Source of the DNA: Deltaproteobacteria bacterium RBG_16_49_23
GTDB taxonomy: Bacteria; Desulfobacterota; BSN033; UBA1163
Assembly (NCBI GenBank): GCA_001798855.1
Contig: MGQQ01000132.1
Coordinates: 4,421-68,420, forward strand
Direction: 5' to 3'
Length of the DNA stretch: 64,000 nucleotides
The notes beneath the pieces were generated by a model. That model did not search any database. It saw only the letters and a list, made by a program, of their open reading frames with translations, and was not told where the DNA came from. Every line of letters begins with the position of its first letter. The stretch's first letter is position 1. Shown in pieces: positions 8,947-59,046 of the stretch. The translations under genes and the position numbers were made by a program.

Positions 8947-9849
8947 ATGATCCTCATCGGTGAAAATCTTAATGTAATCATTAAGAAGATTGGGACGGCG
9001 ATGAAAGAAAAGGACCCCAGGCCCATTCAGGAGATGGCCATTGCCGAAGCCAGCGCCGGTGTTGATTACATAGACATCAACCTGGGCCCAGCCCGGAAGG
9101 GCGGAGGGGAGCTGATGGAGTGGATCGTTAAAACCGTTCAGGAAGTGGTGGATACCCCCCTCTATCTTGATACTATCAATGCGGAAGCCATCGAAGCCGG
9201 ACTCCGGGCCTACAAAAATAAGAAAGGAAAAGCAGTGATCAATTCGATCATGGCCCGTCCGGAAAGCATGGAAGCTAAATTCCCTCTTGCCCAGAAGTAT
9301 GATGCAGGGGTTGTTGCCCTCCTCTGGGGGCCTTCCGGTCTTCCACGGGACGCCAACGAGAGAGGCGTGCTGGCCGCCGAACTAATGCAGAAGGCCATGG
9401 AATACGGCATCCCGAATGAAGATATCTGGATCGATCCCATTATCACCCCGATCACCAGCCCCCAGAGCCAGGTTCAGGTCCCGGGCTGTATCGAATTTAT
9501 GAAGATGTTCAAAGACCTCCAGGAGATCGCCCCTGGGATCAAGTCAACCTGCGGACTCTCGAATGTGTCCAACGGCGCTCCGAATCACCTCAGGCCCATC
9601 CTCAATCAGACCTATCTCGTCATGCTCGAACGGTACGGCATGTCCTCAGCCATCATCGACGCCTTTGACGAAGATCTAAAAACATTTGCAAAGGGAAAGA
9701 GGGAGGATTTAAAAAAATTGATCTTTCGGGTGATGGACAAAGATCAAATCGACCTCAAGTCCCTGAGTAAGGAAGAAGCTGATTATGTCAAAACCACGAA
9801 AATCCTGATGGGCCAAATACTCTACTCCGACTCCTGGCTCCAAATGTAA
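8947..9849 (+). CDS. acsE: methyltetrahydrofolate:corrinoid/iron-sulfur protein methyltransferase (pterin-binding)
   Basis: MILIGENLN...DINLGPA...GLSNVS... resembles Moorella MeTr. Confidence 0.85.
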   Translation: MILIGENLNVIIKKIGTAMKEKDPRPIQEMAIAEASAGVDYIDINLGPARKGGGELMEWIVKTVQEVVDTPLYLDTINAEAIEAGLRAYKNKKGKAVINSIMARPESMEAKFPLAQKYDAGVVALLWGPSGLPRDANERGVLAAELMQKAMEYGIPNEDIWIDPIITPITSPQSQVQVPGCIEFMKMFKDLQEIAPGIKSTCGLSNVSNGAPNHLRPILNQTYLVMLERYGMSSAIIDAFDEDLKTFAKGKREDLKKLIFRVMDKDQIDLKSLSKEEADYVKTTKILMGQILYSDSWLQM

Positions 9850-9978
9850 TTTACGGAAAACCTTGCCCCGTCAGTTCCCTAACATTTTAAAAATTCTCCT
9901 TCTCAAAACCATCGGAGTAACTTAACCCTGAGCGGCGCTTCTTAACCCCGTCTTCAAAAGTTGGGCTTTGCGCCACCA

Positions 9979-10000
9979 AATGGGTCAAACCCATTTTTTC
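9979..10000 (+). terminator. Rho-independent terminator after the acs operon
   Basis: The hairpin AATGGGTCAAACCCATT is followed by a T-tract. Confidence 0.6.
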
Positions 10001-10283
10001 CTGAACACTTCGCTTCCCAAAAGTTTAAAAAAGGTGTATATTACAATTTGCAATCCGTATTTCACGATTAATAACTCTGATTCTGAGGGCAGATAATTTT
10101 TTCAATAATTATGTTTCTACAATTTTACATTATTAAAAGTTAAATTATACTTCAAGAAAGGTCTATTAGCAGCCAGTTGGGGATTAAAAAAAGCCTTTTA
10201 AAAGGCTAAACCTTTTGATCTTCAGAAAAAATAAAGTAGGAACATAAAAAATAACGTTGGGTGATGAGAGGATAGATAAAACT

Positions 10284-11216
10284 ATGACCAAAAAACAACG
10301 GATGGTGCACAAACAGGAGTTTGTGAAAGTTCTATCTCATTTTGTATCAGGACTGGGAAAATATGTTTCTTCGGATGATGGTTAGTGGGCAGTCAAAGGC
10401 TTCATTGACATATACAAAAACATCTACACGATCAGCTCAGATACGAAGATAGTTTCAAAGATATTGGAGATTCATCTTTTCCCAAAGATACTTCAATTCG
10501 CAGAAGACAATGGCTATTCCATAGTCCTCGCCGAGCACCAGAACTGGTATCCCGATTTCAGCTTCGTCAAGAAGGACAACCAGGCCCTCAAGTTCGCCGT
10601 TGACCTTAAGACTGCGTATAGGGATCCGGATTTTCCTGGGCATGTAAACGGCTTCACCCTTGGAAGTCATGGTGCCTATTTCAAGGACCGGTCGTCTACC
10701 AAAAATATCCAATTCCCCTATGCTGACTTTGAAGGGCACTTTTGTCTCGGTATCATCTACACAAGAGCAGACTCTAAGGACTTGGGCGAAACAGAAGTTA
10801 TCCGGGTGAAGGAACTGGAAGATGAGGGAAATGATAAAAATCCTCGCAAGTACCGAGTCACCCAGGTCGAGAACCTTCGCTCAATTGCCTCTGTCGTCAA
10901 AGACTTCCAGTTTTTTGTCTGCGAGAAGTGGAGGTTAGCATCCGATCGACAAGGATCAGGAAACACTGCAAACATTGGGTCAATCACATGGATAGGGGAC
11001 ATTTTGGTCGGGAATGGTATGTTTGGAAAACTCGGTGAGAAGTGGTTCGATGAGTATTTGATGAACTATGGAGTCACAACAATGATGAAGCAAGGTAAAG
11101 CAATCCCGATACGGTCTCTTGAGGATTTTTTGGACTTCAAAGTAGGTGACAAAAACAAGATTGTGCCCTTGAGATCGAAGAAGAAGTTGCGGGGCGAGGA
11201 GGGTCTATGCGAGTAA
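10284..11216 (+). pseudogene. type II restriction endonuclease (PD-(D/E)xK) interrupted by an in-frame amber codon
   Basis: ATG 10284 with the RBS GAGAGG opens a frame that reads MTKKQRMVHKQEFVKVLSHFVSGLGKYVSSDDG, then TAG at 10383-10385, then WAVKGFIDIYKN...YPDFSF...VDLK... continuously. The only in-frame start after the stop is a weak TTG at 10464 with no RBS. A PD...D-L-K nuclease motif is present and the 3' end overlaps the methyltransferase gene. Confidence 0.6.
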
Positions 11217-12154
11217 TCGTCCCTCCGATAAAGAGCCAGGGTATTAAGACAAAACTTGTACCCTGGATCCATGCTTTAGTGCCTGCAGTACGTGGGCGAT
11301 GGATAGAACCATTCTTGGGCACCGGAGTTGTTGCATTTAATTCTGGGTTCCGTAAAGCACTTCTAAGCGATATCAACCCGCATGTTATAAGATTCTATCA
11401 AAAGGTCAAGGAACGCGAGATTACCCCGTCCTCGGTTCGGAGATTTTTAGAAACCGAAGGACAGCAATTGAGAGAAGCGTCGGAAGATGGCTACGCTTAC
11501 TTTAGACTTGTCAAAAATCGATTTAATACTTCGCAGAATCCTTTGGACTTCCTCTTTCTCTCACGGACTGGGTTCAATGGTATGATGCGTTTCAATCGAA
11601 ATGGTGAATGGAACATTCCCTTCTGTCAAAAGCCTGACCGATTCAATCGTTCCTACATTACCAAAATTGTCAATCAGGTTCACGATGTTGCTTGCCTAAT
11701 TCAACCAGAATGGGAATTCATCGTGGCACCTTTTGAGAAGGTGATTCCTTTGGCCACCAAGGACGACATCATCTACTGCGATCCGCCGTATCTGGGTAGG
11801 TATGTTGATTATTTTAGTGGATGGACTGATGAAGATGAAAAGAGATTGTTTGACCTCCTCTGCAAGACGCCAGCGCGTTTCATACTCTCCACCTGGCACC
11901 ACAATGATTTTCGCGAGAATCTAATGATTCATAAACTGTGGAACAAGTTCAATATTGTTACGCGTGATCATTTCTATCACTCGGGCGGTAAGATTGAAAA
12001 CCGCAGAGCTATTGTAGAGGCTCTCATCTTCAACTTTTCCGCAAACATCCGAATACACAATTACGGCGTTGAGCCGAAGCCCGAACAGCTGGTTCTATTC
12101 GAAGAAAGGGTGGAATACATCACCCAACAATTGAGTCGAGCTGACATTGTATAG
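11207..12154 (+). CDS. Dam-family (D12 class) N6-adenine DNA methyltransferase
   Basis: It has the FxGxG SAM motif (PFLGTGVV) and the DPPY catalytic motif (IIYCDPPYLG). It overlaps the restriction endonuclease gene by 10 nt, the classic R-M coupling arrangement. Confidence 0.85.
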   Translation: MRVIVPPIKSQGIKTKLVPWIHALVPAVRGRWIEPFLGTGVVAFNSGFRKALLSDINPHVIRFYQKVKEREITPSSVRRFLETEGQQLREASEDGYAYFRLVKNRFNTSQNPLDFLFLSRTGFNGMMRFNRNGEWNIPFCQKPDRFNRSYITKIVNQVHDVACLIQPEWEFIVAPFEKVIPLATKDDIIYCDPPYLGRYVDYFSGWTDEDEKRLFDLLCKTPARFILSTWHHNDFRENLMIHKLWNKFNIVTRDHFYHSGGKIENRRAIVEALIFNFSANIRIHNYGVEPKPEQLVLFEERVEYITQQLSRADIV

Positions 12155-12220
12155 TGTTGCGTGCATCACCATGCCCCTCATTCATGACGTTGATCGCACA
12201 CCAGGGATCGGGGTGGCTCT

Positions 12221-13881
12221 GTGGGAGAAGACCAGGCTATGAGCGCGGAAGAGGCCGAGCTAAAGGTGGCCATTGAGCGCGTTCTGAGCTCGCCAAGTCG
12301 CAAGAAGCTTGTGGTCGCGGGGCCCGGCACCGGCAAGACCAGTCTATTCCGGCAGATGCTCGAGTTGGCCGACGGTGAGCCCGATCGATGCATTGTTCTA
12401 ACCTTCATCAACAACCTCAAAGATGACCTTGAAGACGAGCTCTCGGGGCTGGCCGAAGTCTTCACTCTCCACTCGTACTGCCTCGGCCTTCTGTACCGCA
12501 ACGCGACACTCAGAGCCCGCTTGTCAAAGAGCTTCCGGTGCTGTCCCGGCCTCGGAAGCCTTATCAGGGAGGACTGGGAGATTATCGAGAAGTGCAAGGC
12601 GCCGCACTTCATCCGCGAGATGCGCAACATAGAGGAGGAGAACCATATCCCCTTCTACTTGGCGCGTGGGGAGTACTACGACGCCGTCGATTTCGACGAC
12701 ACCGTCTATCGGGTCTACGAGGGCCTGACGTCCGGCGGTGCTGTGCTTGATAGCTACGACCTCGTCTTGGTCGACGAGTACCAGGACTTCAACCGCTTGG
12801 AGGCAGGGTTCATCGATCTCCTGGGACAGGAAAGCCCGATCCTGATTGCAGGAGACGATGATCAAGCGCTCTTCAGCCAGCTGCGTGATTCGAGCTGGAA
12901 CTACATCCGCTTGCTTCATCAAGCTGGCGAATACGAGGTCTTCAATCTGCCGTTCTGCATACGTTGCCCGAAGGTGGTCGTGGATGCGGTAAGCGATGTT
13001 CTCGCGCGGGCTCAAGAATTACACAGACTGGAGGGAAGAATCGAGAAGCCGTACAAGCATTTTCCTCCATTGAAGGGAGCTGACAGCGCGATGTATTCCA
13101 AGATCGCCCTCGTCGAGACGACAGTGCAACGAGAGACTGCGAACTACATGGGACGGTATATAGAGCAGGCCATTGCGAACATCCCCGGCGATGAAATCGA
13201 GGAAGCCGCAGCTGGCGGCTACCCTGCCGTGCTCGTAATCGTTGCACAGCCCTATCGCAGCCAAATCATCAGTCACCTTGAAAGCGTCCAATACGCGTCG
13301 ACACAAGGCGAGATTCCAAGGACAAGCTGGATCGCGAGCTGGGACTGTCGATTCTGAAAGAAGACCGGGGGTCGAATCTCGGGTGGCGAATCATGCTGAG
13401 CGTTGATGCGCCGTCCTTCCGCGCAGACGTCATCGCTCAGACAGTGGACGGTACTCAGCGTTTTGTCGACATCCTCCCAATTGACTTCCGCGACAATGTG
13501 CTGACTGATGTTGATGCCTATGAGCCTCCCGCGGAGGATTCCGAAGATGAGCCAGCTGCCACACCTGGAGGATCGCTACCCGTGAAAGTTACGTCTTTCG
13601 AGGGGGCCAAGGGGCTTTCAGCCCAGCATGTGTTCATTGCGGGCCTGCATGATTACGAGTTGCCACGTAATCCAGGAGCAATCGAGGACCTTGAGATCTG
13701 CAAGTTCGTGGTTGGCCTTACCCGCACTCGAAAAAAGTGTACGCTCCTCTACACGCGTAACTTCGCAGGCGGGTGGAAGTCACCCTCTTCGTTCATTTCT
13801 TGGATTGACAAGGCTCGACTGGAGCACATCAAGGTGGATGCGGTATACTGGAAGAAGACCAGCGGTCAGGGAGGACAGTGA
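12221..13881 (+). pseudogene. UvrD/Rep-like superfamily I DNA helicase split by an apparent single-base frameshift near 13316-13320
   Basis: ORF 12221-13357 carries Walker A (AGPGTGKT) and motif II (VLVDEYQD). ORF 13393-13881, in another frame, carries motifs V and VI (VTSFEGAKGLSAQHVFIAGL, VGLTRTRKKCTLLY). The second frame is open from 13282 and reads through ...KDKLDRELGLSILKEDRG..., so a +/-1 indel joins the two. GC is about 60%, against about 42% for the neighbouring R-M genes. Confidence 0.6.
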
Positions 13882-14044
13882 GCGGTAGATATCAAACCAT
13901 TGGATCTTTAATCTTGATATTTGGATCAAAAGAAAGATTGGATAATGTGTCTAATTCTAAAACATCAAAGTACAAGACCCGTCCCCTAAATGATTAGCGG
14001 GATTATTTTCTATCTGGGGTAAATATTAATTCAAACATATGGGT

Positions 14045-14293
14045 TTATTTTGCATATTTTGAAAAGGACCCACGTTTAATCGTTCCTCTCTGCGATAATC
14101 CTTTCTTAATTTTTTCCAAAGCAACCTTGTTTTGGTAAAGCCATACCTCCCGTGCCGGAATCTCCACCATAGGCTCCAGAATAATCCTGTCATTTTCCTT
14201 GTATGCTCTAACAGAGCTGATCTTTCCGCCTGGAAGAAGCTTTGTTAAAGAAATCCTCTTTTTTGAATCGACGGTTACTTTGATCGTTTCCAT
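14045..14293 (-). CDS. AbrB/MazE/SpoVT-type DNA-binding protein (orphan antitoxin-like)
   Basis: An 82-aa protein beginning METIKVTVDSKKRISLTK, with a swapped-hairpin-like N-terminus. No toxin partner is adjacent. Confidence 0.5.
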   Translation of the reverse strand: METIKVTVDSKKRISLTKLLPGGKISSVRAYKENDRIILEPMVEIPAREVWLYQNKVALEKIKKGLSQRGTIKRGSFSKYAK

Positions 14294-14361
14294 TTTACTC
14301 CTTTCTCGCTTTCGGGTTAATCATAAACAATAAGTGGGAATACCCACATTATTTATTTTCA

Positions 14362-14518
14362 GTAAACCCCGTTAGAAATTCCAGCGGGGCATTAAACCCC
14401 GCCCTGCCTACCGGCAGGCAGGCGGAATTATTCTAAAACCTAACCCCGCTGCAGCCGCCGGCCAAGAGGGCCTCTGGCTCGGAGGGAGCAGCGGGGCATT
14501 ATTTCTAACGGGGTAAAC
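14362..14518. mobile_element. MITE-like element with terminal inverted repeats and a GTAAAC(C) direct flank
   Basis: Left end GTAAAC|CCCGTTAGAAAT, right end ATTTCTAACGGG|GTAAAC. There are internal palindromes (CCTGCCTACCGGCAGGCAGG) and a direct repeat AGCGGGGCATTA. Confidence 0.5.
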
Positions 14519-17431: not shown

Positions 17432-18067
17432 CTATAAACTTATTTCCTGGCCCACGAGCAGGAGCCCTTCTCTGATCGCTCCATCAATATAGTGACAGAC
17501 TCTGATCTCTTCACCTCGCTCGATCAGATAGAGGCAGTCATTGGTCTGTTCGATCTTGAGGGTCTTCTCCAGAGGGAATTCCAGAAACATCCCGATCAGC
17601 AGCCGGTTGACGACCCGGTGGCCGACAATCAGGATCTCCTCGCCTTCATGTTGATGCAAGATTCTTTCCATAAAAGGCTTTAATCGAAGGGCCACATCTG
17701 AATAATTCTCCGCTCCGGGAATCCGGTAGGAAAAACGGTCCTCTCTAAAACGGTTCCATTCATTCTTAAGCTCCTCATCAAATTGGAAAAGGTACTTCCC
17801 CTCCAGTATTCCGAAGGCAATCTCTTTGAGTTCGGCCTGTTTTAGAATGGGAAGCCCAAGATGCCGGGCAATGGGCTGGGCGGTGAGATAGGACCTCTGG
17901 AGATGACTGCTGTAGATGGCTCTGAGGGGTCGAGCTTTGAGATGTTCGAGCAGAGACAGACTCTGGGCGTAACCTAAGGGGCTCAGCTCTGGATCACTCC
18001 AGCCCTGAATCCTTCCCTCCGCATTCCACGTCGTCTCCCCATGCCTCGCAATGTAGATATTAATCAA
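17432..18067 (-). CDS. histidine phosphatase family protein (phosphoglycerate mutase-like)
   Basis: The RHGET(T)WN catalytic motif is at the N-terminus. Confidence 0.8.
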   Translation of the reverse strand: MINIYIARHGETTWNAEGRIQGWSDPELSPLGYAQSLSLLEHLKARPLRAIYSSHLQRSYLTAQPIARHLGLPILKQAELKEIAFGILEGKYLFQFDEELKNEWNRFREDRFSYRIPGAENYSDVALRLKPFMERILHQHEGEEILIVGHRVVNRLLIGMFLEFPLEKTLKIEQTNDCLYLIERGEEIRVCHYIDGAIREGLLLVGQEISL

Positions 18068-20229
18068 TGGGCAAATGCTCCTTTCTCACCTATGAACAAT
18101 ATGTTACGGTTTGTCTCCGGACCCTTCACTTCAAAACATATAAAATCTAAAACTTTCCCCTTCCCATCCGCAATAGCCAGCAGATATTTCCCTGCTTTTG
18201 GAGTCCAGGGGATTGTCTTACCTGACATCTCCATAGGAAGCCCATTCAATACCCATTGGAAGTCATTCTCATTGCTCTGAGAGATGAAGAAGATTTTTTG
18301 AAGTTCAAGAGGGATATCAGGGTCAAGGGCGATCACCGTCCCGGAAGGAGGGTAGACGATTCTCGGATTGAATTGACCTATCTTCTGATCCTTTGAATTA
18401 GGTTCTGTCCCTCGGATAAACCATTCCTCCCGGGAGGGTGAAATGCCTTGCGAAAATTCAATCTCTCTTTGCACAAGATTTGGAAGGGCTTCTTTTTTTG
18501 CAATGGATTCATTTCGATGAAGAAAATTCATCGCCTCGATCCAGACGGGAGCCGCCCCGGAAATGCCACTCACATTCCACATCGGCTCTCCGGAAAAGTT
18601 TCCTGTCCAAACACCCACCGTATACTTCCTCGAATATCCAATACACCAGTTATCCCTCATATCCTTGCTGGTGCCGGTCTTCACGGCGGTCCAGAAGCGG
18701 GTGGATAATGGATTTTCAAGGCCAAAGGTGAAACTCCGGGCATCTCTGTCAGATAAGATATCCGAGATCAGAAAGGATGCTTCTTTTGAAAATATCCGCC
18801 TTTTCTGGTCTAATCGATTTTCTTGATAAATGAGCCGGAGTTCACTCCATATCCCCTCATTGGCCAGGGTTCGATAGGCATTGATAAGCTCCCAGAGGCT
18901 CACATCCGCTGAACCCAGGGCAAGGGAAAGTCCATAGAAATCACCTGATTCGTTAAGCCCCTTTATTCCCAATTGCCGCAGCCTACTCAAGAAGGGTTCA
19001 ATGCCGATCAAAGATAAGGCCTTGACGGCAGGGACATTAAGAGAGGAAGCCAGGGCGACTCTTGAAGTGATGAACCCTTTGAACTGGGAGTCATAATTTC
19101 TGGGTTGATAGATTCCGCTCAAGACGGCGATATCAAGAGGCGAATCATCCAGAAGAGAGGCCGGGGTAAGAATCCGTTGATCAAAGGCGAGGCCATAGAG
19201 AAAAGGTTTTAAGGTAGAACCCGCTTGTCTTTTAGCTTGAACTCCATCGACAAACCGGGAAGACAAAGGTTCTCCACTATAACTTACATAGGCCAAGACA
19301 TTCCCCGTTTGATTCTCCACGACCAGAACTGCTCCGTCCCTCACATTCTGCATCCTCAACGGATGAAGGTGATGCAGCAATCGGTCCAGAGCAAATCGCT
19401 GCGTTTCGCTGTCCAGAGTAGAAATGATGGTGGATCCATGGGGCTTTCCCTTTAATAATTGCCTCGCAACATGCGGGGCAAGATTCTCCCGTAGACGGAG
19501 TAAATTCGGTCCTAAAAATATCTGCCTCACCTTAGAATGAATCTCTTCCTCGCCAACCTTCGACTCCATTACTCTATTGAGATGTAAAGCCCTTTTGATT
19601 AACTCTGACGATGAAGCATTGGGGGATCGGATCAAGGCGGCCAGGGTGAGGGATTCTGATTGGTCCAATCCATGAGGATCTTTTCCAAATAATCCTCTCG
19701 AAGCCGCGGCAATCCCTTGAAGTTCTCCTCGGAATGTGATGAGGTTGAGGTAAGCTTCTAAGATCTCCTCTTTTGACCAACATTTCTCAATCTCCCATGC
19801 CTTGAGAACCTGCTTTCCTTTCTGCCATATTGATTTTCTCTCTTTTTTAGGTTGGAGTTCTTTATCCAAAAGGGAAGCTAATTGCATGGTGATCGTGCTT
19901 GCTCCTCGCAGGCTCTCTGAAGTCAGTCCTTTAATGAGTGCAGCCCCTATCGATTTATAATCCACCCCTGGATGTTCATAGAATCGTTTATCCTCTGCTT
20001 TAATCATAGCAACCCTCAGGGCAGGTGATATGTCCTTCAAAGAAATCCAGTCGAGCCTTCTTCGAGTTTTATCCGTTCTCAATTCATAAAGGACCCCTCC
20101 ATGCCGGTCAAGCAAAAGAGAATCTGATTTTACATGAGACTGCCGAACCTCGTCATAAGTAGGCAGGGCTTGGGCCTCCCCGGTCAAGACTAAAAAAAGG
20201 ATGAGAATCAAGAAAAATCGTTTCCTCAT
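18064..20229 (-). CDS. pbpC: penicillin-binding protein 1C
   Basis: A 721-aa protein with transglycosylase and transpeptidase motifs. It overlaps the yfhM stop by 4 bp, the conserved pairing. Confidence 0.85.
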   Translation of the reverse strand: MRKRFFLILILFLVLTGEAQALPTYDEVRQSHVKSDSLLLDRHGGVLYELRTDKTRRRLDWISLKDISPALRVAMIKAEDKRFYEHPGVDYKSIGAALIKGLTSESLRGASTITMQLASLLDKELQPKKERKSIWQKGKQVLKAWEIEKCWSKEEILEAYLNLITFRGELQGIAAASRGLFGKDPHGLDQSESLTLAALIRSPNASSSELIKRALHLNRVMESKVGEEEIHSKVRQIFLGPNLLRLRENLAPHVARQLLKGKPHGSTIISTLDSETQRFALDRLLHHLHPLRMQNVRDGAVLVVENQTGNVLAYVSYSGEPLSSRFVDGVQAKRQAGSTLKPFLYGLAFDQRILTPASLLDDSPLDIAVLSGIYQPRNYDSQFKGFITSRVALASSLNVPAVKALSLIGIEPFLSRLRQLGIKGLNESGDFYGLSLALGSADVSLWELINAYRTLANEGIWSELRLIYQENRLDQKRRIFSKEASFLISDILSDRDARSFTFGLENPLSTRFWTAVKTGTSKDMRDNWCIGYSRKYTVGVWTGNFSGEPMWNVSGISGAAPVWIEAMNFLHRNESIAKKEALPNLVQREIEFSQGISPSREEWFIRGTEPNSKDQKIGQFNPRIVYPPSGTVIALDPDIPLELQKIFFISQSNENDFQWVLNGLPMEMSGKTIPWTPKAGKYLLAIADGKGKVLDFICFEVKGPETNRNILFIGEKGAFAH

Positions 20230-23200
20230 GGAAGGACCTCAACCGTCTGGTTTGGGATCTCTCCGAACATCTCCGGATAATAGAGCGCCTCTACTCTCGT
20301 TGTCGGGAGTTGAAAAACTCCGCTCTGATTCAGCCGGAGGGTATATTCGACGACCCATTGTCCTTTGGGAACATACTCATAATAGGCCCGGAAGGCTTCA
20401 AAGGAACGTTCTTCATAGGCTGGCCAGACCCAGCCCTTTCTCTCCTCTCCTTTGGTGAGGAGTTGTGAATCTCTTGCCAGCCCCTTTCCAAGAATGGTTG
20501 CTCCCGAAGGAATAGGATCGCTCACCACAACCCAGGTTTGATCAGCCTGAGCCTCCAATTCCAGGCGCATTCGAATGATATCTCCTCGGTTCCATTGCTT
20601 GGATTGTTTCTGTTCGATCGGGATGATCGTCTTCTTAATCTTATATCCACTGAAGAACGGTTCTTTCAGAGGAATGGCCGCAAGACTCTGTATGGTCACC
20701 CACGGCTTCCCGTCCCCTTGATGGGAGATAGAAAGTTCTTCTTTCTTATTGGGCCAATGCATTAAAGAACTCTTCCCTTTGGGTGCTGCATTCCAGTCGG
20801 TCGTAAAAGATTCTGCAGATGAAGTCGTATGAGTTGAGCCAGAGACTGGAATGCTTTCAAAGACCTTTGAAAATTTTTCCATGGCAAGAACCCCCCAGGC
20901 GTTGGCCAGGGTCAAGTCCCATCTTCCCCTCCTCTGCCGGGCCAACGCCCCCTGAACCAATCTCGGCATATCCTCCTTCCAGTTGTCTGAGCGAAGAAGT
21001 GATAGGACGACACGTACAGCATTCACGTCATTGGAGACCATGAGCCACCATAAACCATCTGACCTTTCTGTCGAAAAATTCATGACCGTCCCTTGAAAAT
21101 TGAGACGGGACCGGATGATCTGCTCCGCCTCTTTCTTTCGTTCCTCACGATTCGGAATGGCCTGAACATTCTGGAGGATATTCAACCAATCGATCACCGC
21201 AGAGGTTGGCCAGAGGTTGGGTTCAATGGAGATGGAACTCAATAACTTCGGCTCCACCTTCTTACTCCTTGATAAGGCTTCTACCGCCGCTAATTTTCGA
21301 ATGGAAAGATCTGCTGTCGGAATTGGAGAATACCGGATGATCGATCCTTCAATAAACCTCCTGAGACCTGTTTCCATCTTCTCTCTTGCCTCATCGGGTA
21401 TATTCCATCCTGCCTCGTCACCGATGGCGATGATGTAGGAGGTCAATGTCGGACTTCCATAGAGACAGGGGGGAAAATATTTCACCAGACCATCCGTGTC
21501 GAGATGAGAAGGAAGCTCAGACAGACATCTCTTCCAAAGATTTTCATCTCGGAGTGCAACAGCCACTGAGACCTTCTGCTCCATGCATCCATAGGGATAC
21601 CACTTCATATATTCCAGGACGCCATTCAATCCCTCATTAATTTTGGGCCGCAAACTCACCCTTACACCTCCACGGCCCGGAAGTGCGTCCTTAGGTCGTT
21701 CCACAGAGGTCTTAAATTCCTTTTTCACCTGGGCGATGGTCGCCTGAAAAGTCCTCACCGCAAGGGCAGGAATCACCCTCTGCGTTACCTTGATCCGATC
21801 TCCTAATTCAGCGGCTTTCTCCTTCACCTCCACTTCCCAGCGAAGCATTTCAACATTGAGTGGAACAATCGCATCCCATCCGATCTCTTTTAATTCCCCG
21901 GGGGTTAAAGAAACCGCCATGGGGCTAAAGGGTTGTGAAATACCTTCGGCCTTTACAGAAACGTCTAATTCCAAATTCCGTTTTGTTGTATTGCGAAGTG
22001 AAAATCCTGCCCTGAATCGATCACCCTCTCTCAACAAAGGAGGAAGCCCGGATAAGATCATCAAATCCTGCGTAGATTGAATCGAGGTGGAACCTGTCCC
22101 AAAGAGACTTAGCCCACCACTCGCAACCGCTACAATCCTGAAACTGGTGATCGAGTCATTCAGGACCACTTCAACTGTCGCCTCTCCATTGCCATCCAGT
22201 AATACACGGCCTTTCCATAACAAAAGGGTATCGAATAACTCCCTTGTGGACTGCCTTCCTCCGCCTCCTCCTGGAGGAAATGCCTTCAATCCGAAGTGGC
22301 GTTTTCCGATGACCTGCATCTGGGCAGTTGAGGTATGAACGCCATAACCCCTCCGGCCCATCATCGCAGAGAGGATTTCCCAGCTTTGATTGGGCATCAG
22401 CTCAAGCAATCCTTCATCCACTGCAGCAAGAGCAACCTCGCTCCCCGGGGGAGGAACTTTCCCGTCGGAGGTTCTGACCTTGATATTGACCCTTGCTTTC
22501 TGTCGAACCTGATAGACTTTCCGGTCGGAAGAGATGCTCACCTTCAGCTCATGATCCTTCCATCCCACTCTGATTTCAGAAATACCAAGTTTATAAGCAG
22601 GTTTTCCAAGATCGATCATGGCGGTCGGCTTGATCCACGGCAGTCGTCCTCTCACAACCAGAACAGAGACAAAGACATTAGGGGCATAGGTCCCTTTCAC
22701 GGACACTTCAACAACAGGCCTCTTCCCTGAGATCCTTTTCACCCATGCCTCTATCACCCCTTCTCTTTCCACGGTGATCAGAGCCATTGCATTCCTGAAC
22801 GGCATCCGCACCTGAAAGGTTGCTTTCTCACCGGGTTCGTATCTCTTCTTCTCGGAAAGGAGGTCAATCCGGTCATGATCCCCAACCTCAAACCACCACT
22901 CGTCCTTTCCAGCCACCCAGACATCCCTGTGAGCGACCGTCTTATTCCCAGCATCATCAAGGCTCTCTGCCTGAAGGATCACATTTCCGGAAACAGGGGA
23001 TTGAGATTCGCAGATCAGGAGCCCTTTCGAATCAGTTTTTCCCTCACAGAGAGCGACAACCTTCTTTATTTCTGTCGAATGCTCGTAGGCATAGAATCCT
23101 CCGACAAGACGCTTCCGGTGGGTATAGATTTTTCTTTCAAAAAGTTCAACTTTCACCGGCGCTCCTGAAACGGGTTTGCCGGAAAGGTCAACCACGGCAA

Positions 23201-25946
23201 TATGAAATTTAAAAAAATCCTTCGAGACAGCCCATGAATCCGGCTTGATTCCGATGAGATATTTAGAATGCCAGAGTGGAATTTTTGAAGAAACGGTCTG
23301 AATCTCTCCGCTGGGGTCATTAAATTCCATTTCAGTCAATATCTCTTTGGGGCTTTCAACTTTTGACAAATTGGAGATCGGCGTCTGTGTATAACCGGAC
23401 TTATCCAGAACCAAGTCAATGGTCGGGAGTTTCTTCTCCTTTTTCTCCTGGATTCTCTCCTCCCTTTCCATCCCTTGTTCAGACTCCTCAACCCCCAGAG
23501 GCTCTCCCCTTCGAGTAAGCCCTTCTTTGACCGATCCATTGCTAAAGATGAAATCATCAAATCCTTCAAAAGACGGAATGGTTTTAGGCCTGATTTCGCT
23601 TCGCAATTTGATGGGAAGGAGACTTGCCCCTCCCCCCGCAAGATACTGGATGCTCAGATCCAGCAAGACCTCTCTGGCATTGATCAACGGTTCGCTGGGT
23701 GGCTGGATGATCCCTTTTAAGAGGGGAACTCGAAACTCCTCAACCCTGAATCGTCCAGAGGTCCACTCTCGAGGGTCCCTCCGGGAGGGTGTTTTTCTCT
23801 GATCGGTCTCTGCCTTTTTCAACAGGCGAACTTCATAAAATCCGAGTTTTGACTCCCTGGGAATCATCCAGGTCGTCTCAGCAACTCCATTCGCATCCCA
23901 TTTCAATGGAAACTGGTATTTCTGCCCGCTTCCGTAATGTTCGATGGAAATAAAATCAGGCATTTGAGGATTGGGAACTGCCGAAAATCCTTTCATCGTA
24001 TGTTGGCGAAAAAAATGTTTCATGTGGACTGTCTCACCGGCACGGAGCAATGGTCGATCAAAAATGGTGTGAGCGATGAATGGACCTGAGTAAAACTCAT
24101 TGGGAAGATTGAACCTCCAGGGTTCGATCCCATTATCCCAACCAGAATGAACAAAGGCCATATCTTCAGAGGTTTGCGCCGTGACAAAAAGGCCTCCTTC
24201 AAGAGAGTGGAGAGCACCCATCTCCTGATAAACATAATGATCGTTTATTTTAAACTCACATCTTGGAAGCTCTCCCTGTGAAGGCAATGTTCCTTCGATT
24301 CGTGCGATCCCGCTGGCGTCTGTCTTTCCTTGCCATAAGACCTTTTCCTGGCAATCCCTTACCGTCACCATCGCCTCTTTCACAGGCTCACCTGTATCAA
24401 GAGCCGTTACCCAAGCCAATGAGGATTCCCTTCCCCATTTAAAGTGAACAGAGAGATTGGTCACCAGGGCTGCCGTGGGTACATACATAGGTCGTTGTGA
24501 ACCGAGGAGAGATTTTCCTAAGAGGGCACTCTCAAGTTCAACAATGTAGAGACCGGGTTTCTTAAACGGAATTCCAACCACCTCAAAAGCATGAGCCCCC
24601 AGGGGTTTGGGGATTTTAAAATCTTTCACTCCCTTTCCGTCACTAAAAATGGATTTCTCTCTCGAAGCAGAAGCCACCTTCCTCAACCAGCCCTGAATGC
24701 TTTCTCCTTTTTCAGGTTGAACATTCAGGACCTTTCCCAGCACCTTTCCAACAATCCCCTTCTCTTCGCCAATTTTTAACATGGTTGCCTTCACCTCAGG
24801 CTCCAGGTCCCTTAACGTTACGGGAAGCACAGGCTCAGGCTTCAGTTCTACAACCCCAAATCTTGCTGAAAACTTTGCCAGGGGAGGATACGCCTCAGTT
24901 TGTACAGAGAGTGGGAATTTATCCGCATTGACGAGTGGTCGGCCTGTCACATCTTTAAGCCCTGGTGGAAGTTCGATGCTGAAATTCGTATTCTCTGGGA
25001 AAGGACCTTTGAAAACAGCTCCGGTGATCTCCTCCCTTTCTCCAAATTGTGGCTTCCAAATCCTCCCGTCAGGCCCTTTTAATACGATACTCATTGCCTG
25101 ATCCAACGAAATAGGAGAGGAGAAGTAGAGGTGCATCGGCAAGAGAGGAATACATCCTGATCCCTTATGTTCTCTTTCACAACTAAACTCTGCGGAGAAG
25201 GGTTTTCTGACCTGAAAACGAAATATCTGATCCTGGTCTGTTGGCACACCTGCCTTTGACATCACTCCTTTGCCCCAGATCAGGCTGACTTTTGCATTGG
25301 ATGGGAAACGCTGTTTGCTCTGGATTAGGATGATCGGAAGGGGTGGGGGCTTCCTATATCTAAAAAGAGCCTTCAAGATCTCTTCCTTCTCCCTCCCAGT
25401 AATGAACTTAATCCCTACACGATCCTGGATATCTTCAATAGAGAAAAAGACATTTTGAATCACAGATTCTTCATCAGGTTCTGCATCTAAGGGCAGGACA
25501 AAAATCTGCTCTTCATTAAGATATTGCGACCCTTCATAAGGGGTAGACGACTTAATAGCAGGGCCACCTGTGGAGAAGGAAAATTCCTTCTGGCCTGTGA
25601 CCTCCTGTCCGGAAAGGGTCTTCAGGTTGGGCCTTAATTGAAACTCACATCGAATCCCTGCGGGAAGATCTCTCTCAAAATCAAATACCCAATTTTTTCC
25701 ATCTGCCCAGCGGCTGGTTCCCTTTTCAGAGCAATCGATATCGAAGGGTTCGACAAGGACTCGTGGGTCACCGAAGGGCACCATCTGTTCTGAAAAACGG
25801 ACACTTACCTGACGAACATTTTTAACCGTGCCCTGAGGAGAAAACATCTCAACCCGAGACCCATCTTCTGCATAAGTCCAAGTAATAAACAAAAAGCAAA
25901 GTGACAAAAATAATCCGATGTATTTGGGTGTCATGTCTCCCTCCAT
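20226..25946 (-). CDS. yfhM: bacterial alpha-2-macroglobulin family lipoprotein (1906 aa)
   Basis: It has a signal/lipobox N-terminus and a thioester-like GCMEQ motif. Its size and its partnership with pbpC fit the family. Confidence 0.8.
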   Translation of the reverse strand: MEGDMTPKYIGLFLSLCFLFITWTYAEDGSRVEMFSPQGTVKNVRQVSVRFSEQMVPFGDPRVLVEPFDIDCSEKGTSRWADGKNWVFDFERDLPAGIRCEFQLRPNLKTLSGQEVTGQKEFSFSTGGPAIKSSTPYEGSQYLNEEQIFVLPLDAEPDEESVIQNVFFSIEDIQDRVGIKFITGREKEEILKALFRYRKPPPLPIILIQSKQRFPSNAKVSLIWGKGVMSKAGVPTDQDQIFRFQVRKPFSAEFSCEREHKGSGCIPLLPMHLYFSSPISLDQAMSIVLKGPDGRIWKPQFGEREEITGAVFKGPFPENTNFSIELPPGLKDVTGRPLVNADKFPLSVQTEAYPPLAKFSARFGVVELKPEPVLPVTLRDLEPEVKATMLKIGEEKGIVGKVLGKVLNVQPEKGESIQGWLRKVASASREKSIFSDGKGVKDFKIPKPLGAHAFEVVGIPFKKPGLYIVELESALLGKSLLGSQRPMYVPTAALVTNLSVHFKWGRESSLAWVTALDTGEPVKEAMVTVRDCQEKVLWQGKTDASGIARIEGTLPSQGELPRCEFKINDHYVYQEMGALHSLEGGLFVTAQTSEDMAFVHSGWDNGIEPWRFNLPNEFYSGPFIAHTIFDRPLLRAGETVHMKHFFRQHTMKGFSAVPNPQMPDFISIEHYGSGQKYQFPLKWDANGVAETTWMIPRESKLGFYEVRLLKKAETDQRKTPSRRDPREWTSGRFRVEEFRVPLLKGIIQPPSEPLINAREVLLDLSIQYLAGGGASLLPIKLRSEIRPKTIPSFEGFDDFIFSNGSVKEGLTRRGEPLGVEESEQGMEREERIQEKKEKKLPTIDLVLDKSGYTQTPISNLSKVESPKEILTEMEFNDPSGEIQTVSSKIPLWHSKYLIGIKPDSWAVSKDFFKFHIAVVDLSGKPVSGAPVKVELFERKIYTHRKRLVGGFYAYEHSTEIKKVVALCEGKTDSKGLLICESQSPVSGNVILQAESLDDAGNKTVAHRDVWVAGKDEWWFEVGDHDRIDLLSEKKRYEPGEKATFQVRMPFRNAMALITVEREGVIEAWVKRISGKRPVVEVSVKGTYAPNVFVSVLVVRGRLPWIKPTAMIDLGKPAYKLGISEIRVGWKDHELKVSISSDRKVYQVRQKARVNIKVRTSDGKVPPPGSEVALAAVDEGLLELMPNQSWEILSAMMGRRGYGVHTSTAQMQVIGKRHFGLKAFPPGGGGGRQSTRELFDTLLLWKGRVLLDGNGEATVEVVLNDSITSFRIVAVASGGLSLFGTGSTSIQSTQDLMILSGLPPLLREGDRFRAGFSLRNTTKRNLELDVSVKAEGISQPFSPMAVSLTPGELKEIGWDAIVPLNVEMLRWEVEVKEKAAELGDRIKVTQRVIPALAVRTFQATIAQVKKEFKTSVERPKDALPGRGGVRVSLRPKINEGLNGVLEYMKWYPYGCMEQKVSVAVALRDENLWKRCLSELPSHLDTDGLVKYFPPCLYGSPTLTSYIIAIGDEAGWNIPDEAREKMETGLRRFIEGSIIRYSPIPTADLSIRKLAAVEALSRSKKVEPKLLSSISIEPNLWPTSAVIDWLNILQNVQAIPNREERKKEAEQIIRSRLNFQGTVMNFSTERSDGLWWLMVSNDVNAVRVVLSLLRSDNWKEDMPRLVQGALARQRRGRWDLTLANAWGVLAMEKFSKVFESIPVSGSTHTTSSAESFTTDWNAAPKGKSSLMHWPNKKEELSISHQGDGKPWVTIQSLAAIPLKEPFFSGYKIKKTIIPIEQKQSKQWNRGDIIRMRLELEAQADQTWVVVSDPIPSGATILGKGLARDSQLLTKGEERKGWVWPAYEERSFEAFRAYYEYVPKGQWVVEYTLRLNQSGVFQLPTTRVEALYYPEMFGEIPNQTVEVLP

Positions 25947-26109
25947 CCCTTTCCATTTTTGAACAATTCGCTAACATTCGTAAGCTTTGGGGTTTTGGGG
26001 GATTCTACTAAATTAAAACAGGTCGGTCAATGAAGAAGCATTCTATTTTTTGTATAGACATCTCCAAATACTATACATAGACTACACGTAAAGAAACAGG
26101 CGGATTTTA

Positions 26110-26340
26110 ATGCAGGAAAAGTTGACAATAACTGTGGATGAGGAAGTTTATGAGGGTCTCCACAAAACCATAGGCCCCCACAAAATCAGCAAATTTGTTG
26201 AAGAACTGGTGCGCCCACATGTAGTGCGTCCCAATCTCGAATCGGCCTATGCCCAAATGGCAAAGGATAAAAAACGGGAGGAGGAAGCCATAGAGTGGGC
26301 AGAAATCACTTTTAAGGACATTGCCAATGAAACGGCGTGA
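26110..26340 (+). CDS. type II antitoxin (MazE/AbrB-like)
   Basis: A 76-aa ORF overlapping the downstream MazF toxin gene by 20 nt. Confidence 0.6.
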   Translation: MQEKLTITVDEEVYEGLHKTIGPHKISKFVEELVRPHVVRPNLESAYAQMAKDKKREEEAIEWAEITFKDIANETA

Positions 26341-26650
26341 GGTCTGGTGGGTTAATTTTAATCCTTCCATTGGTGGGAAAATCAAAAAGAAGCGCCCTGC
26401 TGTCATCGTCAGTAATAATGCTTCAAATAAGTTCCTCAATCGAGTTCAGGTTGTTCCTCTAACCAGCAAGACAGATCGTCTCTATCCCAGCGAGGCATTG
26501 GTGGTTTTTGAGGGGAAGGAAAGTAAAGCCATGGCCGATCAACTGGCGACTGTAAGCAAGTTACGACTTTTTAAACGTGCTGGCTTTCTCTCAGAAGAAG
26601 ATATCCGCAGAATTGAAGAGGCCATCAAAATACAATTGGATATTTATTGA
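26321..26650 (+). CDS. mazF: MazF/PemK family endoribonuclease toxin
   Basis: REVWWVNFNPSIGGKIKKKRPAVIVS... is the PemK/MazF signature. Confidence 0.85.
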   Translation: MPMKRREVWWVNFNPSIGGKIKKKRPAVIVSNNASNKFLNRVQVVPLTSKTDRLYPSEALVVFEGKESKAMADQLATVSKLRLFKRAGFLSEEDIRRIEEAIKIQLDIY

Positions 26651-26774
26651 ATCGTTTTGGGGTATTGGAGATATGGTATTTTTGTCTCCCCGGATTCAAA
26701 CTTATCACTAATGGGTGCCCCAAAACTTGTCCCTGTTTTCTTTTGTGCCATGTTAACGGAAGTTGCCTGCATAT

Positions 26775-27293
26775 TCATTTTTTGCGATTTTCCTTATCAT
26801 CTATTATTTCCTGAATTTCAGGAGACAAAAACTTTTTATCAACGATTAATCCATTAACCATTACGATATTAGAAAATGGATTGGTTTCTTTCATGTGGCC
26901 TGTAGAAAACTCTTTGTCCCAATAATTTAATCCGAACATATCCCGAATAACCTTTGCTTTCTGCGAAGTGCTGCTTTTTGTTGTTCCAAAATGCCTGGAT
27001 ATGTCCCCAGCCGTAGCATAGGGTCTGAAACTTTTATCAAAAAGAAAGTTGATGCTACCTATTGCATAGACAATGGCTGCTGCCCAAATTTCAAGTCTTC
27101 CTGAAAGAAATGGGGTTGTTCGTTTGCGCGACATCTTTTGTATAAGATTTTCACATAATTGCTCATAATCTGCGTCAAGATATGCCTCACAAAATCCAGT
27201 AGTTTTCTCTATAAGCTCTTGCATCTTTCCTTTAATAAGCACTTCGTTTTTCACCATGAATGAATCCCCTTTCATTTGCGATGTTGCAGACAA
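26775..27293 (-). CDS. hypothetical protein (possibly DUF6398-like)
   Basis: A 172-aa ORF in an AT-rich accessory patch. The assignment is by recollection of the family pattern only. Confidence 0.35.
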   Translation of the reverse strand: MSATSQMKGDSFMVKNEVLIKGKMQELIEKTTGFCEAYLDADYEQLCENLIQKMSRKRTTPFLSGRLEIWAAAIVYAIGSINFLFDKSFRPYATAGDISRHFGTTKSSTSQKAKVIRDMFGLNYWDKEFSTGHMKETNPFSNIVMVNGLIVDKKFLSPEIQEIIDDKENRKK

Positions 27294-27610
27294 TTTCCTA
27301 TGACGGGCTGACGGGTTAGCTATGTTTTTTTACCCAGCGCCTTTCCTCCACCAGAAGAAGAACAATTAGGGTCAAAGCTAAAAAATACATTTTATATGGG
27401 CAATTAATTTTGATATGGTTAGACATGGTGCGGCAGTTACGATAAATGGGGTCTACCATTGATATTTGATAAATTTATGCACACTGATACCAGAGGCGGA
27501 TGATGAAATTCTCTCTTTGATATCTTGCCTCGCCTCCGTAGATAAGAACGCCCGTTTTCGAAGCAGGGGTGCCGAAAGAGGTAAAGTACCTAAGTCCACC
27601 AAATAAAGAG

Positions 27611-28051
27611 TTATCCAAAAGTTTTATGCTCGATAAATTTCAAAATGGAATCACAGTATTTTACATATTGGCGGATTGCCTCTTCGACCGATTTGTAAAT
27701 GATATCCCGCCTTGTATTATTGTACTCATGAACCAGACGATTCCTTAAGCCAGCGCTGGGAGCAATCTGTTTGGCGAATTCCTCGCTATAAATTCCAAAT
27801 TGAGAGAGGATGTAAAACGTATCTTCATAACCCCTCACTCGCTCATCCCCTCTTCCGAGCTCAGCAATCATGTGTTGATTAATATCAATGGCCCGCATGA
27901 TGATCTTTTCCAATAATCGTTCCACAGCCAGATATTTAATAGGGTCTCCGGAGATTTCTTCAAACGAATAATGGGCAAGATCCTCTAATACGGATAGGTC
28001 TTCTTGAATCAGTTTAATCTTTCTTCGAATAAAATGAGTATCAACGGGCAT
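27611..28051 (-). CDS. hepT: HepT-like (DUF86, HEPN) RNase toxin
   Basis: The Rx4HxY motif (RNRLVHEY) is present. Confidence 0.8.
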   Translation of the reverse strand: MPVDTHFIRRKIKLIQEDLSVLEDLAHYSFEEISGDPIKYLAVERLLEKIIMRAIDINQHMIAELGRGDERVRGYEDTFYILSQFGIYSEEFAKQIAPSAGLRNRLVHEYNNTRRDIIYKSVEEAIRQYVKYCDSILKFIEHKTFG

Positions 28052-28469
28052 ATTTTTGGTTTAGGTAATTTTGGAACTTTTGGATTAATATTTTTTCCAA
28101 GTGGAACAAGTCTTTACTGTCAAAATAATTAGAAAAGGCATGGGCTCTAAACTCATTGAAATCGGTAAGATCTCCATAAAGCAGCTGGCTGTCCTTGGCA
28201 ACCTGATAGCAAAAAAGAGGGTCGGCTTTATGAAGCGATTTGATGTCCAATTCACGCCGGGGATTATCCCCGAAGATTTCTGCCAAATCGCTGTATATGT
28301 CTAACAATTCTTCAAGTTCGATCGGTTTTTCCCCGAGAAGAGCTATGTCTAAATCACTATCCGGTTTCATTTTGTTGGTAGCATAAGAGCCGTGAAGCAG
28401 AATGAACTTTAAACGGCGCTTCCTCCCGACTTCTTCAATCTTTTGTTGCTGGTCTTCAGTTAATTGCAT
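28041..28469 (-). CDS. mntA: MNT nucleotidyltransferase antitoxin
   Basis: The GSx9-13DxD motif (GSYATNKMKPDSDLDIA) is present and the gene overlaps hepT by 11 nt. Confidence 0.8.
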   Translation of the reverse strand: MQLTEDQQQKIEEVGRKRRLKFILLHGSYATNKMKPDSDLDIALLGEKPIELEELLDIYSDLAEIFGDNPRRELDIKSLHKADPLFCYQVAKDSQLLYGDLTDFNEFRAHAFSNYFDSKDLFHLEKILIQKFQNYLNQKYAR

Positions 28470-58372: not shown

Positions 58373-58765
58373 TCATACTGGTATCTCGAGCAAAATCTTA
58401 TCGTAATTCACTAACGGAGTGTTCTTTTCCCTGCCAACTTTCTTCTTCTTAATCTCCAACATGCCCGCCTGCGCGAGGAACTGAACATCATTAAAGGTAT
58501 TCTTAATATCCCGTTTCAGTTTTTTTGCCAACTCGTAGACGGAAGCGGGACGTTCCTTCCTGACGGTTCTGAGAACCCTCAACCGTTCCTCGGTCAGCAC
58601 TTTTCTCATGGAGTCGATACTATCGAAAGAGACGCCCTCATGCTTTTTGATCTTCTCACCGCTCTCGATCTTTTTGACGACTTCTTTAATTTCTTTGAGA
58701 ATCTCCTCATCGGATTTGATTGCAATTTTAATTTTTTTCACTTTCATCGTTTGCCTTCCCTCCAT
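58373..58765 (-). CDS. HVO_A0114-family winged-helix DNA-binding protein (putative antitoxin, TumA-like)
   Basis: ...RPASVYELAKKLKRDIKNTFNDVQFLAQAGMLEI... It overlaps the upstream small gene by 22 nt. Confidence 0.5.
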   Translation of the reverse strand: MEGRQTMKVKKIKIAIKSDEEILKEIKEVVKKIESGEKIKKHEGVSFDSIDSMRKVLTEERLRVLRTVRKERPASVYELAKKLKRDIKNTFNDVQFLAQAGMLEIKKKKVGREKNTPLVNYDKILLEIPV

Positions 58766-59046
58766 TTCATGACATCGCTCGCAAAGTCTTGCCAGAGCTT
58801 TTCGAGGCTTTGAAATTCATAAGGATACTCTTTGTCGCCGTAGTGCCTATGATCGCCCCTGCCCTCGGCGTTGTCATAGCCGATCACTCGCTGATCATTG
58901 ACGATGTACACGAAAGAATATTTGAATTCATGCGGCTTATCCGGGCTCTGTGGCACCCTCCATATTTTAAATTCGCGAAACGAACCATCCTCGAAATACT
59001 TCTTCTCATGATAAAGTAGTCCAGCCTTCCCAGCGCGATCCTTCAT
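58744..59046 (-). CDS. DUF6516/TumE-like small protein (putative toxin partner)
   Basis: A 100-aa protein, ...FKIWRVPQSPDKPHEFKYSFVYI..., forming a two-gene operon with the HTH protein. Confidence 0.4.
   Translation of the reverse strand: MKDRAGKAGLLYHEKKYFEDGSFREFKIWRVPQSPDKPHEFKYSFVYIVNDQRVIGYDNAEGRGDHRHYGDKEYPYEFQSLEKLWQDFASDVMKWREGKR

Follow-up and report, generated by a model that had tools for sequence, protein, structure and literature searches.

A composite restriction-modification and helicase cassette behind acsE, apparently decaying to a solitary M.EcoRV-like methyltransferase

Results

An EcoRV-family restriction-modification operon and a helicase gene lie behind acsE

We analysed 64,000 nucleotides from Deltaproteobacteria bacterium RBG_16_49_23 (contig MGQQ01000132.1, positions 4,421 to 68,420), referred to below as the window, and all coordinates are those of the window unless a relative is named. 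Among its genes, we focused on a cluster behind acsE that consists of an AT-rich leader, a restriction endonuclease gene (R), a DNA methyltransferase gene (M) and a superfamily 1 (SF1) helicase gene. R and the helicase gene each carry an inactivating lesion, and M is uninterrupted. The reading that we favour, at a probability of about 0.8, is that of a decaying composite cassette that leaves a structurally solitary M.EcoRV-like methylase. The features at the centre of this reading are as follows.

9918..10283, plus strand: AT-rich cassette leader, 97.5-98.6% identical in relatives L081-L083
10284..11216, plus strand: EcoRV-family type II restriction endonuclease pseudogene, 310 codons
10383..10385, plus strand: premature TAG at codon 34 of R, a C>T change in CAG; L081-L084 all have CAG (Gln)
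11207..12154, plus strand: intact M.EcoRV-like N6-adenine DNA methyltransferase, 315 amino acids (aa), with matches to PF02086 and TIGR00571
12221..13881, plus strand: SF1 (UvrD-like) helicase pseudogene, 553 codons once repaired, with matches to PF00580 and PF13245

The product of R matches the Pfam profile Endonuc-EcoRV (PF09233) with 347 bits against a cut-off of 25 and the EcoRV chains in the PDB with E=1.6e-33, and it is 32.5% identical to EcoRV. The catalytic PD...D-x-K residues are kept as YPDF (D91) and AVDLK (D107, K109), which correspond to D74, D90 and K92 of EcoRV, and the recognition loop GSGNTANIGSI aligns with GSGNTTNIGSI of EcoRV. An earlier note, made from the letters of this DNA alone, had called the endonuclease inactivated, and the relatives bear this out. 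Homologues of R that are 98% identical are intact 310-aa proteins with glutamine at position 34, the TAG of the window is reproduced in a separate assembly (L172, below), and the next in-frame start after the stop is a TTG at codon 61. When changes were polarised with the 93%-identical restriction-modification (R-M) genes of L084, the window branch of R showed five non-synonymous changes, the stop included (Q34*, T111A, Y149F, W259L and D304G), against two synonymous ones, and the L081 branch showed one conservative and one synonymous change. Residues T111, Y149 and W259 are kept in 78-80 of 80 related R loci. Although the counts are small, they suggest that R has probably evolved without constraint for most of the window branch.

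The first 10 bp of M overlap the end of R, and M has its own purine-rich ribosome-binding site. Its product scores 143.9 bits against PF02086 (cut-off 22) and 176.4 bits against the Dam-family model TIGR00571 of NCBIfam (cut-off 114.85), and it carries the S-adenosylmethionine (SAM)-binding motif EPFLGTG as well as CDPPY. It is 50% identical to M.EcoRV of pLG13 over its full length (301 aligned columns, 308 bits). Against structures it reaches 71 bits for DpnM and 62 bits for E. coli Dam, and its score against the E. coli Dam equivalog model is 82 where the cut-off is 441. The window branch of M holds Q22H and R87Q, both at variable sites, and one synonymous change. The gene had earlier been described as an intact Dam-like methyltransferase acting at GATC. 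Intact it is, but its likeness is to M.EcoRV, and the predicted target changes with it. Because of its identity to M.EcoRV and its pairing with an EcoRV-family nuclease whose recognition loop is conserved, M is expected to target GATATC, and R likewise. A methylome check in this organism should look for modification at GATATC, not at GATC.

The helicase gene is split into two open reading frames (ORFs) in different frames (12221-13357 and 13393-13881). Compared with the intact copies of 547 and 553 aa in L081 and L082, it has lost one C of a CC pair after position 13295, at codon 359 of 553. This deletion, reproduced in L172, L173 and L175, is the frameshift that the earlier note had reported. 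Damaging changes other than the deletion are not in clear excess, and several of the differences are instead derived in L081 or L082, so that, small as the counts are, the helicase lesion looks more recent than the decay of R.

The helicase matches PF00580 with 66.7 bits and PF13245 with 44.9 bits and UvrD_C weakly, with 15-17 bits. With the equivalog models of UvrD, Rep and PcrA it reaches 54, 41 and 40 bits, far below the cut-offs of 1144, 951 and 911, and we rejected orthology to any of the three. The earlier note had named Gabija-, Hachiman- and Nhi-like defence as candidates to check for the helicase. The best PADLOC matches were GajB models, with 48-63 bits on the window helicase and up to 91 bits on relatives, and all of them were partial. 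The helicase shares with Gabija GajB and with UvrD-Rep-PcrA helicases (SF1A) the Walker A and DEYQD motifs and the Pfam matches to UvrD N- and C-terminal domains; it differs from Gabija in that no gene for GajA (an ATPase-Toprim/OLD nuclease) adjoins it at the locus or adjoins its solo homologues, and in belonging to a distinct solo family. With only weak, partial GajB/RTasHel profile matches and no partner genes, assignment to Gabija, Hachiman, Nhi or DRT was rejected. In a profile search at E<=1e-30 this family comprised 433 clusters (50% identity), nearly all of 540-620 aa and free of fused domains, within which Walker A (GPGTGKT) and DEYQDF are invariant. An 827-aa relative (P0230), checked for an informative fused domain, has none. 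Homologues that are 63-77% identical, among others in Desulfobacterota, Nitrospirota and Gallionella, occur as solo genes, and their neighbourhoods are unrelated. The AlphaFold2 (AF2) model of the helicase, with a predicted local distance difference test (pLDDT) score of 51.6, was too poor for fold assignment.

Both lesions recur in a separate assembly

If the TAG and the frameshift were sequencing or assembly errors, all three genes would be intact. The source of the window seems to be a metagenome-assembled genome (MAG), and several nanopore MAGs among the relatives show fragmented acs genes, as this explanation would have it. However, both lesions are present in L172, a separate assembly in the ENA that is 99.91% identical over 8.1 kb (7 differences in 8123), and the deletion is also present in L173 (99.43% identical) and L175, both of which stop short of the TAG site. 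These independent copies were recovered by protein look-ups; an exact-pattern scan of metagenome contigs for the TAG/CAG site returned nothing. The window shows no further broken gene, and its remaining overlapping ORF pairs are genuine toxin-antitoxin pairs. The deletion lies in a CC pair and not in a homopolymer, and R carries three missense changes at invariant residues in addition to its stop. We regard the lesions as real and give an artefact next to no probability.

A second possibility is that the lesions are real but programmed, by phase variation, by UAG read-through or pyrrolysine insertion in R, or by frameshifting in the helicase, with toxic proteins kept at a low, regulated level as the result. 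A regulated or phase-variable locus had been among the suggestions of the earlier note. Restriction enzymes are toxic, tight down-regulation of them is common, and UAG is decoded as pyrrolysine in some Deltaproteobacteria. In the window, however, TAG is a normal stop that ends 8 of 46 large ORFs, M included. Neither lesion lies at a repeat tract, a homopolymer of at least five or an X XXY YYZ slippery heptamer, and the extra missense changes of R fall at invariant residues. The intact sister copies in L081 and L082 need no recoding, and the allele is fixed across assemblies of this population. A conserved recoding site is also missing, as codon 34 of R encodes Q, E, D or G in relatives, and stops of all three kinds occur elsewhere in the family (see below). 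There is, in our view, hardly any likelihood that the lesions are programmed.

The cassette occupies a variable site and probably moved as one block

To place the boundaries of the cluster, we compared it with relatives that have it and relatives that do not. The host flank, the boundaries and the R-M module are as follows.

8947..9849, plus strand: acsE, left host flank and last gene of the acs cluster, an ORF for methyl-H4folate:corrinoid Fe-S protein methyltransferase
9850..9917, no strand: left junction zone, in which alignments to relatives pass from host-like divergence to cassette-like near-identity
10228..12191, plus strand: R-M module that is also found alone elsewhere, 93.3% identical over exactly that span in L084-L087, in unrelated context
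13882..14014, no strand: AT-rich stretch at the 3' end of the cassette, missing in relatives without the cassette and 98.5-100% identical in L081 and L082

The four closest genomes, L001-L004, are Syntrophaceae/Thermodesulfobacteriota MAGs whose AcsE proteins are 93-89% identical to that of the window and in which the order acsB, acsC, acsE is kept. Across them, the interval from acsE to the homologue of the gene at 14624 is a variable hotspot. In L002 the site is empty, with 65 bp between acsE and the homologue of the gene at 14624. L001 holds an 82-aa gene and a 97-aa gene (described below) plus a HicAB-like pair, L004 holds a collagen-repeat protein and the same two-gene pair, and L003 holds 5 kb of unrelated cargo with a HicAB-like pair at its end. 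R-M and helicase genes are absent from the site in all four, and homology between the window and cassette-free relatives stops on the left at 9839-9884. Because the site is empty or otherwise filled in these relatives, we conclude that the cassette was inserted directly behind acsE, in agreement with the earlier note. That note had set the insertion behind an acs operon terminator, but the only terminator-like hairpin (9978-9999) sits inside the cassette's own leader, where two promoter-like sites (10014-10042 and 10124-10151) are found as well. Searching the window with Rfam and for tRNAs gave no match and so no tRNA-type integration site.

Two contigs from relatives, L081 and L082, carry the leader, R, M and the helicase gene in the order of the window and with all genes intact (R 310/319 aa, M 315 aa, helicase 547/553 aa); such an intact version is what the earlier note had suggested looking for in close relatives. 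L081 spans both flanks, with acsE and the homologue of the gene at 14624, and has the 82-aa gene; L082 reaches the end of acsE only. From the leader through the helicase, the window and L081 are 98.4-99.5% identical, compared with 87% for the final 310 nt of acsE and 86% for the gene at 14624. L081 and L082 differ from each other in their acsE ends, with differences up to 9917 and none beyond, and are identical from 9918 to 13970 (~4 kb). The same internal R-M/helicase junction is found in the three copies that cover it, namely the window, L081 and L082. Because the block is ~99% identical whereas the flanking host genes are 86-87% identical, we favour one acquisition of a pre-assembled composite, and the cassette appears to have moved recently as one unit between well-diverged lineages.

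At a deeper level, the R-M module and the helicase appear to be of separate origin. The module shared with L084-L087 ends at 12191, 30 bp before the start of the helicase gene and within the 66-bp gap between M and the helicase. A co-oriented M lies directly downstream of R in 78 of 80 related metagenomic loci, the other two ending at a contig edge, and the helicase was found downstream in none of the 37 related R-M loci that have at least 1.7 kb of downstream sequence. The segment is mosaic, as had been claimed, but the two separate acquisitions that were read from it reduce to a single block.

These comparisons also bear on the idea that R, M and the helicase are one three-gene defence system, in which the helicase decayed on loss of its partner nuclease, or the reverse. 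Such a system would fit the co-orientation and close spacing of the genes, their joint travel in the window, L081 and L082, and the inactivation of both non-methylase genes in the same lineage. It is at odds with the absence of the helicase from the 37 loci, with the solo state of its 63-77% identical homologues, with the end of the R-M module short of the helicase start, and with the difference in GC content between the R-M genes (44.5%) and the helicase (56.5%). We consider it very unlikely that the three genes are parts of one system.

The leader (9850-10283) has a GC content of 34.8% and the stretch 13882-14044 one of 33%, compared with 53.1% for the acs genes, 47.5% for the downstream flank and 48.8% for the whole window. 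The contrast that the earlier note drew between the segments is right in direction, but its magnitude was overstated. With a standard deviation of 3.9 points for 1-kb windows, each module lies within roughly two standard deviations. We did not accept composition by itself as proof that the segment is foreign; it is the comparative data that convince.

The leader has little in common with the R-M genes found alone: its likeness to the R-M-only loci L084-L087 and L092 is weak and confined to 53 nt (9995-10047). In L083, 94-95 bp of the leader (window 10132/3-10226) are missing. With it, L083 lacks the hairpin AGCCTTTTAAAAGGCT and the -10 element that belongs to the best promoter-like match; the presumed control region of the R-M genes is polymorphic for this indel.

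The right edge of the cassette truncates a toxin-like gene

Two small features on the minus strand mark the right end of the cassette.

14003..14038, minus strand: remnant of a 97-aa, weakly ParE-like gene at the right junction; homology covers codons 1-8, after which come 3 junk codons and a stop
14045..14293, minus strand: conserved 82-aa gene on the host side (the "AbrB" of the earlier note), present without the cassette in L001 and L004

All that the window keeps of the 97-aa gene is MFELIFTP (14015-14038, minus strand), and homology of the window to cassette-free relatives restarts at 14016. The remnant in L081 is 23 bp longer and runs through codon 16. The full-length gene is found in L001 (10959-11252, minus strand) and L004 (13006-13299, minus strand), 6 bp after the 82-aa gene, and its product matches ParE_toxin (PF05016) with E=0.0056 and 17.7 bits, below the cut-off of 23. 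The 82-aa gene is 94.4% identical to that of L081, compared with ~99% for the cassette, and so diverges at a host-like rate. It also occurs alone in L176, a Nitrospirota contig, and its product is 100% identical to a protein annotated from Deltaproteobacteria bacterium RBG_16_49_23. The right edge of the cassette has thus truncated a toxin-like gene, leaving the 82-aa gene as the surviving upstream partner and not as cassette cargo; the 82-aa gene is probably the antitoxin of the destroyed pair. The pair in the relatives resembles ParE/RelE-type toxin-antitoxin pairs in having two genes 6 bp apart on one strand, a weak ParE_toxin match and a place in a hotspot that also holds HicAB-like pairs. 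It differs from them in that the ParE match is below the Pfam cut-off and the 82-aa partner has no antitoxin-family match.

The 82-aa gene had been listed as an orphan AbrB gene of the island. Its presence in L001 and L004 without the cassette places it outside the cargo. Its product has no match in Pfam at E<=1, nothing relevant came from NCBIfam or a PDB profile search, and hhalign gave probabilities of 1.5% against AbrB and 2.3% against MazE. The AF2 model has a pLDDT of 48, too low to assign a fold, and Foldseek returned only ribosomal and integrase noise. Membership in AbrB/SpoVT/MazE has no profile or fold support, and a short motif resemblance seen by eye is all that is left of it.

Two further observations concern this interval. 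It repeatedly gathers toxin-antitoxin-type cargo in relatives, and the HicB/HicA-like small gene pairs lie at 11852-12335 in L001 and at 15365-15816 in L003. The window also has ~170 bp at 14341-14512 (core 14366-14514) where L081 has only ~34 bp. The 14-bp terminal inverted repeats of this stretch (ACCCCGTTAGAAAT) are perfect and occupy 14366-14379 and 14501-14514, and it also contains a 13-bp direct repeat and, at 14444-14496, an internal palindrome of 26 nt. The stretch resembles a small insertion of the miniature inverted-repeat transposable element (MITE) or repetitive extragenic palindromic (REP) type and is present in a single copy within the window.

R is lost recurrently in the family and M is not

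We surveyed the family at 80 related loci, which represent 67 distinct R alleles. R is disrupted in 6 of the 67 by independent events (W35>TAG, K68>TAA, G130>TGA, C154>TGA, one frameshift around codon 255, and one deletion plus frameshift in codons 81-92), and the adjacent M is intact wherever it is covered. The recurrence of R-null, M-intact alleles with lesions at differing positions argues against a conserved recoding site. A broken M was found at one locus only, L168. This asymmetry is a known one, with a lethal outcome when M is lost first.

Two of the surveyed loci deserve mention by themselves. At L168 (LZCG01000380.1, 782-2583), M is in three frames with a stop and R is seemingly uninterrupted, the reverse of the usual order of decay; an assembly error and an R inactivated by missense are both possible. 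At L093 (Ga0194112_10317771), an 88%-identical R has TGG>TAG at codon 35, beside the codon-34 TAG of the window. The L093 stop is independent, and its adjacency is probably a coincidence.

Other features of the window

Three gene groups lie elsewhere in the window. A HepT-like RNase and an MNT nucleotidyltransferase form a toxin-antitoxin pair at 27611-28469 (minus strand), beside a DUF6398 protein (26775-27293); the stretch ~25250-28250 has a GC content of 38-42%, and another acquired islet is possible there. At 58373-59046 (minus strand), a gene that resembles the TumE toxin (58744-59046) and a winged-helix HVO_A0114/MarR-like gene (58373-58765) overlap, and the two are probably a TumE/TumA-type toxin-antitoxin pair. 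Finally, 18064-25946 (minus strand) encodes a bacterial alpha-2-macroglobulin (A2M; 1906 aa) followed directly by a PBP1C-type penicillin-binding protein (721 aa), which is the known A2M-PBP1C pairing.

Discussion

The R-M genes of the window are related to the EcoRV system of E. coli plasmids such as pLG13, which likewise is a type IIP system of two genes, one of them for a Dam-class methylase, and whose R and M are homologous to those of the window. The layouts differ. In pLG13, M is divergent from a gene for a helix-turn-helix regulator (C-protein-like) that is followed by R, whereas in the window R comes first, is co-oriented with M and shares 10 bp with it, and a C gene is absent: no ORF of at least 60 aa lies in 9850-10283, upstream of R. 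The window R also differs from EcoRV in a ~27-aa N-terminal extension and a longer C-terminus (310 against 245 aa) and in being a pseudogene. A Rhodothermus plasmid system that is 52% identical has the same R>M layout as the window. In this layout the operon is also like Eco29kI, where R lies ahead of M, partly runs into it and shares its operon, without a C protein (PMC3113576). The Eco29kI enzyme families are unrelated to those of the window. An internal M promoter and antisense promoters have been shown for Eco29kI (Nagornykh et al. 2011, PMC3113576). Candidates for such promoters in the window are weak consensus matches at 10729-10756 (plus strand), 11152-11125 (minus strand) and 11409-11382 (minus strand).

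We propose that 9918 to 14014 is a composite mobile cassette of ~4.1 kb, made up of an AT-rich leader, an overlapping EcoRV-family R>M operon and a solo-type SF1 helicase gene. It lies in a variable hotspot between acsE and a small toxin-antitoxin-like locus, with its right edge truncating the toxin-like gene, and would have spread as a single block among related Syntrophales-type lineages, presumably by recombination through the conserved flanks. In the lineage of the window, R was killed by the CAG>TAG change at codon 34 and has since gathered missense changes at otherwise invariant residues, and the helicase was killed by the 1-bp deletion at codon 359, with the frame and motifs of M left intact. 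The solitary methylase that remains is predicted, from its relationship to M.EcoRV, to make N6-methyladenine (m6A) in GATATC, and M would be both expressed and active. Of the readings in the earlier note, an R-M system decaying to an orphan methylase is the best one, given a null R, an intact M, the signature of decay in R and the recurrence of the same outcome across the family. Lineage-specific orphan methylases have been described in reviews (PMC12707154). The window resembles solitary methyltransferases from decayed R-M systems in having an intact M beside an R pseudogene, a recurring arrangement in this family. It differs from them in that its M is recent (~1% from intact copies) and lacks conservation in the host clade as a whole, and we found no evidence in the window for recruitment of M to a host function.

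The loss of R may have been neutral decay, or it may have been selected when the cassette entered a genome rich in GATATC. According to the latter, a nuclease made ahead of its methylase met ~0.8 GATATC per kb, R-null cells came through establishment or evaded post-segregational killing, M was retained, and the decay of the helicase was a separate event. Such selection would refine, and not exclude, the decay that we propose. GATATC is indeed abundant in the window, with 51 sites where 18.5 are expected from dinucleotide shuffles (2.8-fold over-represented; 0 of 100 shuffles reach 51). An overlapping layout with R before M and no C-protein gene should, according to the Eco29kI study, complicate establishment in naive hosts (PMC3113576). 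The survey, with its 6 R-null alleles among 67 and its one broken M, also fits selection. On the other hand, the intact R at the same site in L081 and L082 implies that establishment with an active R is possible. Neutral decay also predicts R-null alleles, M-first loss being lethal, and the order of events is not datable from seven substitutions. We hold selected loss of R as a tentative proposal, somewhat less probable than an even chance.

Several points weigh against a cassette that is decaying to a functional lone methylase. The window branch of M has only 3 substitutions (2 non-synonymous, 1 synonymous), too few to demonstrate purifying selection, and M may simply have yet to decay. Despite the ribosome-binding site of M, the early stop in R could reduce translation or transcription of M by polarity, given the 10-bp overlap. 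Avoidance of GATATC, a signature of long residence, is not seen in the 64 kb; the host thus seems to be without a long-term imprint of this specificity, which fits recent acquisition and does not confirm the specificity. Neither an integrase nor a transposase was found, and a repeat search gave no direct or inverted repeats that bracket the cassette, so that the mechanism of spread is inferred.

What the helicase contributes is a separate matter. It might be a single-gene mobile module of ~550 aa, defensive or accessory to R-M and without a fixed partner, whose capture behind R>M and inactivation in the lineage that lost R reflect a dependence on restriction-generated DNA ends and not coincidence. 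We regard this as improbable. The solo helicase family is nevertheless widespread and strongly conserved, and we flag it for attention.

Asymmetric decay of R-M systems and their mobility are already established, and our results leave that understanding unchanged. Taken together, the locus would be a natural snapshot of a type II R-M system on its way to a lone methylase, for which an intact ancestor-like copy, an empty site, the module boundaries and both mutations have been recovered.

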